The notes under the pieces were generated by a model, which searched no databases, was not told where the DNA came from, and was given only the letters and a program-made list of their open reading frames with translations. The position numbers and the translations under genes were made by a program. 64,000 nt of DNA. Origin: Escherichia coli (lineage in GTDB: Bacteria; Pseudomonadota; Gammaproteobacteria; Enterobacterales; Enterobacteriaceae). Of the stretch, positions 6,834 to 9,835 are shown piece by piece (the first letter of the stretch is position 1; every line of letters begins with the position of its first letter). The DNA lies in assembly GCF_003991155.1 (NCBI RefSeq), contig NZ_CP031293.1. One strand, 5' to 3'.

Positions 6834-7349
6834 TCAAATTTTATGAATACTAATAAGGGGTTTGCACCACTCAACCGAGAGAATATCTTCCATTTTATAA
6901 AAAACGCCATAATCACTTTGATTATAATGCTCAATTTTATCAGCCATTTGTAATCTAATTTTGTCTTTGTAAATTCTACTTCGGATCAAACTGGCGAAAT
7001 TATATATATCAACCCTCAGATTGATAATATTATTTCTATCTGGGCGTCTTTCATGTAACATATCACGAAAAGAAACAAGTAACGTAATTAATTTTTTAGC
7101 CTCATTATTTTTAATATATCCTTTTTTAAAGATGCATAATATTAATTTTGAAATTAAGCTGATTTTTATTTGTAAATTATAGATAGCATTATCGTTTGTC
7201 AGGCAGGTTATGACTTCAATTACTTCACGTGAGCGAATATAATTGTCCAGTGCTTCCCATTCATCCATTCCTCGATGCATTGAAAGTTCCAATTGCCTTA
7301 AAAAAGCATATAACCCCAATAAGAAGTCGCTATTGCAGTATATTTTCAT
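6834..7349 (-). CDS. putative Rhs immunity protein (cognate to orphan Rhs-CT at 7346-8737)
   Basis: 171 aa, AT-rich, immediately downstream of the Rhs-CT gene with a 4-bp ATGA overlap; family not recognised. Confidence 0.5.
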   Translation of the reverse strand: MKIYCNSDFLLGLYAFLRQLELSMHRGMDEWEALDNYIRSREVIEVITCLTNDNAIYNLQIKISLISKLILCIFKKGYIKNNEAKKLITLLVSFRDMLHERRPDRNNIINLRVDIYNFASLIRSRIYKDKIRLQMADKIEHYNQSDYGVFYKMEDILSVEWCKPLISIHKI

Positions 7350-8737
7350 GAATCACATCCTTTAATAAAACTCATTATTCGTGACCAAAAAGAGTCTTTT
7401 TTGTATATAGGGTTTTTATCGTTTAATGGTAAAGGATCGTCTGTTGGTATAACGGCTGTATTTCTTGGCCCAACATTTGTTTTAGTAAGTGAATCTTTGG
7501 AAGCATCAAACTCTACATAAGAACCATTCTTCCATGCCCCTGTTTCTGCACCTGCCGTTTTAGGATCTCCAAATGGCTCCACCTCAACGTGTACACCAAC
7601 AGGATTGCCTCTGGCAGGGTTGATAGACCCATCCTTGCTAATTCCATCAATACCCTCTGTTGAAGTATGATGTCTAACTCTAACAGTATCGTCACCAGTT
7701 AACCCTAACGGATCAATAATTTTTAGCGGATTAAATACATATCCATACAGGCAATCCCCACCTCTCAGCCCCATCGGATCAGCACACAGATACTGCCCCG
7801 TATCGCAATCATAATACCTGAATCGGTTATAGTACAGGCCTGACTCAACATCCTCGTACTGCCCCGGAAAACGTAACCGGCATGTGGGCGCATCTTCTTT
7901 ACTGATGCCTTCCTCACGCCCCCAGAGCTGCTGCTTGCCTTTCCAGACTATCAGACCCTCTTCGGTCAGCAGTTCTTGTACGCGGCCAGTTGTGTCTGTT
8001 ACCGCATAATGCAGTTGCCCCTTTTCATAACGCGCAAACGGCGTGAAATCTCCCGGCTCGTATATCCAGCGGATGGCGTTTTCATCTTCCGGTTTGCCGT
8101 CAGCGCCAACCGGAATTTCCGCCGTCAACTGGTCGCCGTTCCAGTGAAAATCCATGCCGCGTTTGTCGCGGCTGGTACAGCGCTTGCTGATGCGCCTGCC
8201 GAACGGGTCATACTTATATTCCCAGCGTTCGCCCTCCGGTGTTTCCAGTCCGGTCAACTGGCTGCGTGCATCCCATTTATAACGCCATTCCAGTGGGCGA
8301 TAACCCCCTTTATCCACCAGTTTCTGTACCAGCCTGCCGTTAACATCATATTTCCAGGTGATGTTGTGCGCATTCACCACCCGGACAAATCTCCCGTCTT
8401 CCCCTTTTCCGGTGTCCGGGTTGATGCGATGCGTCGAGTGCCGCCAGCCTTCATGTTCCCGCGATACCACACGACCATGCTGCTGTTGCTGGTGCGTCTC
8501 GCTTTCCAGTACGTTATTCACCCTGATCTGGCGACGGGTAATGTTCAGGTTTTTATCGTAAGTGAACAGCTCCTCGCACAGCGGAAACTGGCTGGAATCA
8601 CCCGTCCAGGTGGCGTGGCTTATCTGGTCGTTTGCCGTGATGGTGTTGAACATGGAGCCGCGCAGCGAGTCGGCGATTGCGGTGAGGTTATACGCTTTGT
8701 CGTAGCTTCGCTGCGTCGGGAGGTTTCCATGCCGCAC
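7346..8737 (-). CDS. orphan Rhs C-terminal fragment: end of YD-repeat core plus variable C-terminal toxin domain
   Basis: YD-repeat-like segments ([19 protein letters not shown]) and the core-terminating motif [23 protein letters not shown]...DPLGL, followed by a ~115-aa unrelated C-terminal domain; GC-rich core against AT-rich tip. No full-length Rhs N-terminus upstream. Confidence 0.75.
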   Translation of the reverse strand: [463 protein letters not shown]

Positions 8738-8850
8738 AGGTCGTGCTCAAATGTCAGCGGGGCATGGTCCGCTATTCGCCATGACGTAAGATGCCCCATC
8801 AGGTCGCGGGTGAAGCGTTCTGTGATACCCTCAGCCTGTAATTTTACAGG

Positions 8851-9285
8851 TTAAATGGGGAATTTTTCTTCAATGAGCTTCAAGCCAAGTAATGCCATAT
8901 CATGAATATCTTCATCATGCGATTGAGCCGAAATTTTCAACCCGTTTACCATTCTTTTATCTGGGAAAGACATTGTTAATATAGTACACCAAAGCCTAAC
9001 GCTTTTTATTGTGTTAGGATTTTCGAGTATGTTAACGATATTTATAACAACATCATTAAAATCACACTTATAGAGAAAATCCTCAACAATTTGATATACT
9101 CCAAGACCATCACCCTCACCAAAAGATCGCAAAAATAAAGGTATTGCATCTTTATCGGGATGGGAAAGAAAGTAAATTCGTACCTCATCGTATTTATCTA
9201 TAAGATCCTGAGTAATATCACAATCCGCGGGCATTGGTTGATGTAGTGACAGGAACTCTAATGCTTCTTTTTTATTCATATTCAT
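8851..9285 (-). CDS. putative Rhs immunity protein (cognate to the IS-truncated Rhs-CT at 9282-9763)
   Basis: Small ORF starting immediately after the upstream toxin stop; likely start at the internal Met (MNMNKKEALEF). Confidence 0.45.
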   Translation of the reverse strand: MNMNKKEALEFLSLHQPMPADCDITQDLIDKYDEVRIYFLSHPDKDAIPLFLRSFGEGDGLGVYQIVEDFLYKCDFNDVVINIVNILENPNTIKSVRLWCTILTMSFPDKRMVNGLKISAQSHDEDIHDMALLGLKLIEEKFPI

Positions 9286-9763
9286 ATATTTAATGATTCC
9301 CAAAGTTTTTTATTCTGTCTGGCTAACTCATATAGTTGTTCAGTGATGACCTTTTTATCATAGCCTGCATTTGTTAAGATTTTTCTTAGGTCATCTATAT
9401 CCCTTTTCAAATATTGTTCTTTTGTCAAACCTCGAACAAATGCTCGTCTGAATGTCCAGGTAAGAGCATGTAAATCTTTACGCAGATTTATCGTAATTCC
9501 CTTACATTTTGTTGTGGGGCTTACCGCATCCTGAATGGCATGATGAGGTGTATGAGTTGCATTAAGCCCTGTTTTACCATTCGCATAAATTGAAGAACCA
9601 TATGTACCAACGTATAAATCTTCTCCTGGACCAGCTAACAATCCCAAGGGATCAATCCATACCAGTGGATTTGGAGCGTAATTGTAAAGGTTTACTCCCC
9701 CCGACAGTCCAATCGGATCAGCACACAGATACTGTCCTGTCTCGCAATCATAGTACCGGAACC
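9282..9763 (-). pseudogene. Rhs core tip plus C-terminal toxin domain, 5'-truncated by the IS3-family element
   Basis: Rhs-derived coding begins at [20 protein letters not shown]...DPLGL exactly at the IS left terminus (9764); the annotated Met and first ~16 codons are read from IS terminal sequence. C-terminal domain of unknown family. Confidence 0.65.
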
Positions 9764-9835
9764 TGTAGTGGCACAGTAAATTTGGCCACCTGATTAAAGG
9801 TGATATTCTCACCTCAACACAAAACAGGTGACTTA

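Follow-up and report, generated by a model that had tools for sequence, protein, structure and literature searches.

Two Rhs toxin/immunity cassettes as the probable remains of a decayed type VI secretion effector cluster in Escherichia coli

How do two toxin-tipped Rhs fragments come to stand on a chromosome with no Rhs gene around them, and what could they still do there? The question is raised by a 64,000-nucleotide stretch of the Escherichia coli chromosome (contig NZ_CP031293.1; hereafter the window), which includes a degraded island next to tRNA-Asn. A sequence-only reading of the window had picked out two Rhs fragments that end in the core-terminating motif and run on into different C-terminal (CT) domains of about 115 to 125 aa, each followed by a small AT-rich putative immunity gene. 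Overall, we find it quite probable that a vgrG/DUF2169/PAAR-Rhs cluster has decayed here, leaving its 3' end, that its toxin/immunity tips have stayed intact, and that one toxin domain (CT2) is TreTu-like and the other (CT1) belongs to an undescribed family.

The cassettes and their probable source cluster

The features of the cassettes, all on the minus strand, and of the sequences that adjoin them are as follows.

11022..11352, minus strand: remnant of a DUF2169 accessory gene of type VI secretion systems (T6SS), the first 110 of ~394 codons, cut by an insertion sequence (IS)
9764..11021, plus strand: IS3-family insertion sequence (NF033516 transpos_IS3, 263.7 bits)
9639..9763, minus strand: end of an Rhs core (RFRYYD...DPIGL), ~42 codons, truncated by the IS (TIGR03696; tblastn to Rhs residues 1219-1266)
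9285..9638, minus strand: CT1, 118 aa (stop codon 9282-9284)
8851..9285, minus strand: imm1, 144 aa, putative immunity gene (downstream homologues, ATGA overlap)
8704..8829, minus strand: orphan 2, upstream part of the Rhs core (tblastn match with Rhs residues 850-891, 88% identity)
7700..8737, minus strand: orphan 2, in-frame part of the Rhs core, 346 codons containing YD repeats (NF041261, TIGR03696, TIGR01643, Pfam)
7349..7699, minus strand: CT2, 117 aa, predicted TreTu-like fold of ADP-ribosyltransferases (ART) (stop codon 7346-7348)
6834..7349, minus strand: imm2, 171 aa, putative immunity gene (Proteus homologue, ATGA overlap)

Both fragments carry the core end that had been claimed for them. 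Fragment 1 (9282-9763) matches TIGR03696 (Rhs_assc_core) at 55.4 bits and fragment 2 at 70.3 bits (cutoff, 32.5), and the motif PxxxxDPxGL can be read in each. The 176-aa open reading frame (ORF) at 9282-9812 consists of an Rhs core end with this motif and 118 further residues, and the 463-aa ORF at 7346-8737 of YD repeats, the motif and 117 further residues. Fragment 2 is also matched by TIGR01643 (38.7 bits) and by Pfam RHS and RHS_repeat (the latter twice), fragment 1 keeps none of the YD/RHS repeats, and the NF041261 RHS_core scores lie far under the full-length cutoff of 2000. The small ORFs that follow (8851-9285 and 6834-7349) each overlap the toxin stop codon with their ATG (ATGA), and their GC contents are 34% and 30%, respectively, compared with 49% for the whole window; the Rhs core has 55%, and the two CT domains have 40% and 36%. 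Homologues in other genera occupy the same place: one of imm1 directly 3' of a CT1 homologue in Pseudomonas (51% identity, E 8e-54) and in Clostridium (43% identity, E 3e-37; with a weak Pfam HEAT_2 match), and, in an rhs orphan array of Proteus mirabilis, one of imm2 directly 3' of a CT2 homologue (36% identity, E 3e-33). The marks of Rhs polymorphic toxins are thus present, namely a core with PxxxxDPxGL, YD repeats (in fragment 2 only) and co-varying CT/immunity pairs.

A tblastn search of all 64 kb with full-length Rhs finds Rhs-like DNA at 7694-8829 and 9633-9776 only, so that the window holds no Rhs shell, as the sequence-only reading had also stated, and by the same search neither fragment has a complete shell with an N-terminal PAAR or other secretion domain. 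A sequencing error that hides a contiguous full-length rhs gene is ruled out for both fragments, because an IS lies immediately upstream of fragment 1 and imm1 immediately upstream of fragment 2; for the same reason we regard them as stump and orphan modules, not as effectors. Fragment 2 (7346-8829) is a classical orphan with ~390 core codons. Its Rhs homology reaches upstream to 8829 in a different frame, the piece at 8704-8829 being out of frame with the annotated ORF, ~28 codons short relative to full Rhs, and beginning 22 nt past the imm1 stop codon. In fragment 1, the first 16 codons of ORF 9282-9812 come from the end of an IS3-family element, and the sequence is Rhs-derived only from 9763. 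Both fragments had been described as displaced orphan modules, which holds for the lack of a shell and for fragment 2, but fragment 1 is an IS3-cut stump and belongs to remains that lie in situ.

The IS3-family element is 1258 bp long, with the ends TGTAGTGG ... CCACTACA and TG...CA terminal inverted repeats, which are short and were missed by an automated inverted-repeat scan. Its transposase (NF033516, 263.7 bits; cutoff, 160) is annotated by RefSeq with a programmed frameshift, and the same genome has another copy of the element, with 99.9% identity, at 28238-29495 of L012, a segment outside the window (STEFF_1 2948602-2980959). Flanked by ACC and ATG, the element shows no direct repeat and no target-site duplication. 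On the left the element meets the Rhs core 42 codons ahead of the DPxGL motif, and on the right it meets a gene for a DUF2169 domain-containing protein (RefSeq) that is cut at codon 110 and is 85.6% identical in nucleotide sequence to the 5' end of a paralogue that is intact, with 394 codons (L012 592-932). In the intact paralogous cluster these two points lie ~4.8 kb apart; therefore, the rest of the DUF2169 gene and the whole PAAR-Rhs body have been lost in an IS-associated rearrangement. Since the IS truncates the DUF2169 gene as well, the cassettes are the in-situ remains of a vgrG/DUF2169/PAAR-Rhs-type cluster of their own.

A search for the main rhs gene elsewhere in the genome, which had been proposed as a check, shows that it exists in the host genome outside the window. 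In STEFF_1, an intact vgrG-DUF2169-PAAR-Rhs (1472 aa)-immunity cluster with two orphans, its PAAR-Rhs gene at 2951785-2956203, lies ~50 kb to the left of the cassettes, and an IS3-decapitated 1362-aa Rhs with one orphan lies ~25 kb to the left. We observe that the decapitated PAAR-Rhs is cut at ~codon 119 by the second IS3 copy, with the flanks ATG and CAT. Compared with the intact PAAR-Rhs gene of the same genome, the orphan-2 core is 87% and the stump core end 86% identical at the nucleotide level, and exact matches extend to 50 nt at most in the orphan core and to 31 nt in the stump.

The IS/DUF2169 junction is shared with relatives, in which the partner joined to it differs. In AR Bank #0349 the junction joins the 1362-aa Rhs, that is, a PAAR-Rhs cut at ~codon 119, and the whole cassette segment is gone; strain 980-2 has lost CT1 and imm1 in a further IS3 rearrangement, and its IS, in inverted orientation, abuts the orphan-2 core. 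We considered AR Bank #0349 as the ancestral state, in which a simple IS3 insertion with an ATG duplication would lie upstream of a 1362-aa main rhs gene, and rejected it; the 1362-aa Rhs of this strain is the IS3-decapitated PAAR-Rhs of the paralogous island, which is also present in the window's genome, and removing the IS restores no ORF. Judged by its arrangement, AR Bank #0349 seems to have lost the ~28 kb between the two copies, cassettes included, by an IS3 x IS3 deletion. In addition, a Shigella flexneri protein in nr (P0025) has the same 16-residue IS-derived leader followed by CT1, with a frameshift in its C-terminal half; the IS/stump junction is therefore also present in Shigella, and is decaying there.

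We propose the following history. A T6SS-associated vgrG/DUF2169/PAAR-Rhs effector cluster, in a tRNA-Asn island of a rare E. coli lineage, would have decayed, and the region would be its 3' end. An IS3-family element and an associated loss of ~4.8 kb would have taken away the greater part of the DUF2169 gene and all of the Rhs shell. The remainder would be a 42-codon core stump fused to CT1, together with imm1, and the downstream classical orphan with its ~390 core codons, CT2 and imm2. Orphan Rhs cassettes are well known, and in this respect the locus itself is ordinary. Orphan 2 shares the layout of the orphan rhs-CT/rhsI modules of Salmonella and E. coli (PMC7043789 and work cited there), in which a partial core ends in PxxxxDPxGL and leads into a variable CT, overlapped by an immunity gene of low GC content, and like them it starts immediately past the preceding immunity gene; comparable orphan arrays are seen in Proteus, Pseudomonas, Clostridium and gut metagenomes. 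Unlike the Salmonella and E. coli modules, this array has lost its main gene to an IS3-associated deletion, its first module is a stump of 42 codons that takes its annotated start from the IS, and the nearest intact PAAR-Rhs is a paralogue ~50 kb off and inverted. The locus records how, in a single E. coli lineage, repeated IS3 rearrangements dismantled one of three paralogous vgrG/DUF2169/PAAR-Rhs islands and spared the toxin/immunity tips.

What the cassettes may still do

The cassettes are rare. A 5.2-kb segment spanning them is found with 100% identity in 21 complete E. coli chromosomes, and STEFF_1 and MRY15-117 are carrier strains. In a set of 5426 complete genomes of this species, CT1 and imm1 are present in 21, always in the same arrangement, CT2 and imm2 in 23, and an Rhs core of the cassette type in only 44. 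The copies in complete genomes are 100% identical to each other and, because of this, selection on the cassettes cannot be assessed from them.

As they stand, the cassettes cannot fire, because both toxins lack an Rhs cocoon to load them and a way of being mounted on VgrG. The part open to selection would be the immunity genes, which may guard the cell against kin that deliver toxins of the CT1 and CT2 types, and the cassettes could also serve as a reservoir to be re-armed by recombination with an intact PAAR-Rhs. Of these two, immunity is the most likely present value of the cassettes, and a recombination reservoir is a possible one.

Alternatively, the region could be inert debris, its toxin/immunity pairs being relics recently inactivated by IS3, heading for deletion and without any present role. 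This would fit the presence of identical copies in only 21 to 23 of the 5426 genomes, the losses already seen in relatives (CT1 and imm1 in 980-2, the whole segment in AR Bank #0349), the frameshifted stump copy in Shigella flexneri, and the label of pseudogene that RefSeq gives to the stump. Set against this, four of four ORFs are full length compared with their homologues from other genera and retain every invariant residue, and immunity genes are useful without a delivery apparatus. We consider inert debris an appreciable but unlikely alternative to a decayed cluster with intact tips.

The toxin domains and their possible use inside the cell

The sequence-only reading could assign neither toxin domain to a family. 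This stands for CT1, which matches nothing, and it stands for Pfam, where neither CT has a significant match, but not for the fold of CT2, whose nearest structural neighbor is the characterised Salmonella Rhs toxin TreTu. Relatives of both domains were collected from 1.84 billion representative proteins with a single concatenated CT2+CT1 profile; every match of full coverage (140 of 140) has the domain at the extreme C terminus, and ~97 of the 170 proteins retrieved belong to the CT1 family.

By sequence search alone, CT2 has no match in Pfam or the PDB. Its AlphaFold2 (AF2) model is confident (pLDDT 81.7, pTM 0.74), and the top four Foldseek matches of this model are TreTu chains (probability, 0.99-1.0). 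The CT2 family profile has TreTu as its only PDB match, through a shared YVEFDxP strand and at a marginal E value of 1.3. As modelled, CT2 has the split beta-sheet fold of ARTs. Among 46 CT2 relatives, none matches the Pfam families TreTu_C (PF24691) or Tox-ART-HYD1 (PF15633) at E<=0.001, and three match each at E<=0.1 (best independent E values, 0.06 for TreTu_C and 0.042 for Tox-ART-HYD1); from these subthreshold matches it follows that CT2 is a related but separate sequence family. We conclude, with the fold taken from the model, that CT2 is a TreTu-like ART of a sequence family of its own.

The residues that are invariant or nearly so in the CT2 family are R10, E40, the PFG motif, E64 and R80. 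R10 is invariant and lies on predicted strand 1 (6-13), H38 lies on strand 2 (36-41) and is D or N in a few relatives, the invariant PFG follows strand 2, and the near-invariant I85, as the putative hydrophobic third position of the active site, lies on a late strand (82-86); in TreTu these positions are R6 (Arg or His, strand 1), H31 (strand 2) and W68 (strand 5). The spacings of R10, H38, PFG and I85 are near those of R6, H31, F41 and W68 in TreTu, a mapping made by spacing and not by superposition; these four TreTu residues have been functionally tested (PMC9825190). Compared with the TreTu/TriTu pair of the Salmonella Typhimurium Rhs-main (PDB 7ZHL and 7ZHM; PMC9825190), CT2 is ~21% identical to TreTu, has no conserved counterparts of its E12 and S25, and adds the invariant E40, E64 and R80. 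TriTu has no sequence similarity with imm2, nor has any PDB chain, and Pfam, NCBIfam and PDB searches return no family or structure for imm2. TreTu modifies D21 of EF-Tu and sits on a deliverable Rhs, whereas CT2 sits on an orphan. Tox-ART-HYD1 resembles CT2 in being a small ART domain at Rhs C termini, matched weakly by three CT2 relatives, but the first position of CT2 is of the R/H type (RVRHHT) and not a tested H-Y-D signature. By analogy, CT2 would use NAD+ to ADP-ribosylate a cytoplasmic target, probably in translation, since TreTu modifies EF-Tu and the HYD1 toxin Tre23, a Photorhabdus Rhs toxin, ADP-ribosylates 23S rRNA (cited in PMC9825190).

Carriers of CT2 are up to 3268 aa in length, with Rhs/YD proteins making up the long ones. 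In addition, stand-alone ORFs of ~115 aa begin just before RVRHHT (P0010, on a JGI metagenome contig; P0009, P0013-P0017). On the P0010 contig, a 181-aa partner ORF follows the stand-alone member and there is no nearby Rhs gene, which suggests a toxin-antitoxin-like use of the ART. CT2 opens a new, sequence-distinct branch of TreTu-type ARTs that also occurs as stand-alone small proteins outside Rhs, and that could help to define the key residues of an unorthodox active site and the targets of the clade.

For CT1 the searches return no such neighbor. The window protein and 43 diverse relatives have no Pfam, NCBIfam, PHROG or PDB match, searches of PADLOC, NCBIfam and PHROGs with the CT domains and immunity proteins give chance-level matches only, Pfam returns nothing significant for the three small ORFs of the region, and a full-text literature search with four signature peptides finds no papers. 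The family is recognised by the motifs GEDLYVGTY, THTPHHxxQ, GITINxxKxxH and DxxxLR...GY...QN, in which H33, H34, Q37, H58 and D81 are invariant and D8, H30, N52, T61, T63 and R86 nearly so. Its members come from Proteobacteria, Firmicutes and Verrucomicrobia (source names include Yersinia, Cronobacter, Lonsdalea, Shewanella, Pseudomonas, Clostridium, Metabacillus and Prosthecobacter), and its carriers reach 2701 aa, the long ones being Rhs/YD proteins, among them one with an SpvB-like N-terminal domain; the domain is also found after Hint modules (PT-HINT, PF07591). The CT1 family is basic (median isoelectric point, 10.1) and imm1 is acidic (4.7).

From these properties we infer that CT1 would act as an enzyme that is basic, depends on histidines and belongs to an undescribed family, and that its acidic, HEAT-like immunity protein would neutralise it; that it targets nucleic acid, and hence is a nuclease, is our best guess, weakly held. 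That CT1 is the founding E. coli example of a new fold or enzymatic activity, in a family carried by Rhs/YD and PT-HINT proteins, paired with HEAT-like immunity proteins and undescribed in the databases, is a tentative proposal that may well prove wrong. CT1/imm1 is in any case a widespread pair without a family assignment and a candidate for work on toxicity, structure and target.

A more familiar identity for CT1 would be that of a His-Me finger (HNH-type) DNase, in which PHH...N...H (H33/H34, N52 and H58) forms the beta-beta-alpha-metal motif. Colicin E9 has the pattern HH-15-N-9-H with NIRVTTPKRH. The CT1 spacing HH-18-N-6-H and its NLRKDLH resemble the colicin sequence, and in hhalign alignments the HH doublet of CT1 falls on that of colicin E9 and on that of a WHH toxin. 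CT1 thus shares with the HNH/His-Me finger toxins (the colicin E9 DNase; AHH, WHH and SHH) an HH doublet, a downstream N and H, a basic charge and an acidic immunity partner. The alignments themselves argue otherwise, since the hhalign probabilities for colicin E9 and the Clostridium WHH toxin (0.1-0.2%) equal those of the CT1-versus-CT2 control. HNH-family Pfam matches are absent in 43 CT1 members even at E 0.1, a PDB profile search at E 10 returns no nuclease, N52 is not invariant in the family, and no beta hairpin is seen in the AF2 model, which is of low confidence (pLDDT 50.6). Statistical similarity (by HMM or profile-profile comparison) and a confident fold are both lacking, so that the resemblance is a lead only, and we find an HNH nuclease unlikely.

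Several observations weigh against the reading that we prefer, that of a decayed effector cluster with intact tips, a TreTu-like CT2 and an undescribed CT1. The intact ORFs of the cassettes may reflect recent decay, as far as their sequences tell, and not selection. Promoter-like sites found in a scan of the region are no commoner than in shuffled sequence, and at the stump ORF the GTG start comes with a GAGG that lacks proper spacing. The intact PAAR-Rhs gene is inverted relative to the cassettes, and re-arming them would therefore need an inversion; re-arming by recombination with this gene is conceivable but speculative. For the toxins, CT2 of the window stays below the thresholds of both TreTu_C and Tox-ART-HYD1, the AF2 model of CT1 is poor, and hhalign scores of CT1 against HNH nucleases are no better than a negative control. 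Finally, CT1 may derive either from the tip of the main rhs gene or from the first orphan of an array.

The cassettes might instead act within the cell, as chromosomal modules resembling type II toxin-antitoxin systems that would be expressed from promoters inside the rhs core and would affect host growth or island stability, with no part in competition. In Salmonella Typhimurium, promoters within the rhs core drive the production of main and orphan Rhs toxins in the cell itself, with internal transcription start sites (TSSs) 89 nt upstream of the PxxxxDPxGL-coding sequence and toxic products from non-ATG starts, and a promoter, P2, is found upstream of Rhs toxins in E. coli (all PMC7043789). 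Orphan 2 has ~1 kb of core upstream of its motif and a position equivalent to this TSS (~7818), the toxin and immunity ORFs are intact and translationally coupled, and the CT2 family has the stand-alone members with a downstream partner in an Rhs-free neighborhood. Given that the equivalent of the P2 -10/-35 region in the stump falls inside the IS end (TSS equivalent, ~9757; IS from 9764) and that the promoter scan is at chance level, we consider this quite unlikely, and return to immunity genes in a decayed cluster as the preferred reading. At the IS/rhs junction, a hybrid promoter-like site at 9774-9747 (minus strand) has its -35 element (GTGCCA) within the IS end and its -10 element (TATGAT) within the rhs stump; with only 9 of 12 positions matching, in a scan at chance level, it was rejected as a candidate.

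Flanking genes and RNAs

Directly 3' of imm2, a 174-aa ORF (6265-6789, minus strand; GC 35%) contains a DGRHR motif of the ParB/sulfiredoxin-like type. It has no Pfam, NCBIfam, PADLOC or PDB match, matches a ParB-like PHROG weakly (E 0.044) and has no counterpart after the Proteus CT2/imm2 pair; it could be another cassette remnant or an unrelated gene. A 96-nt sequence at 6006-6101 recurs in copies of 83-86% identity that lie between genes of the same and related genomes (L012 17821-17915 and 31074-31168; L002 8507-8601; L003 1403-1497) and has no Rfam match.

In STEFF_1 the site is bounded by yeeN and tRNA-Asn/yeeO. One flank of the cassettes holds integrase remnants and a HigA antitoxin gene, with C4/isrK antisense RNAs (Rfam), of a type carried by P4-like elements, beside them; the other holds a viperin-like radical SAM gene, DUF6375 and Avs2. 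The Rfam scan finds no match inside the cassettes. Outside them, it places isrC (145 bits) at 9832-9954 (plus strand) within the orfA region of the IS3 element, and a C4 antisense RNA, its a1/b1 target and isrK at 11712-11912 (plus strand), adjoining an "ash family" gene; these matches indicate that the right part of the island is the remnant of a P4-like element.

On the left, positions 1-4891 (plus strand) are taken up by the 3' part of the viperin-like radical SAM gene (1-414), the DUF6375 gene (411-818) and an Avs2-like STAND NTPase gene (833-4891), which together form one apparent operon. PADLOC recognises Avs2 (7.5e-116) and, for the full-length radical SAM gene, pVip (5e-20), and the coupling of a viperin-like enzyme with Avs2 may represent an unusual composite defence system.

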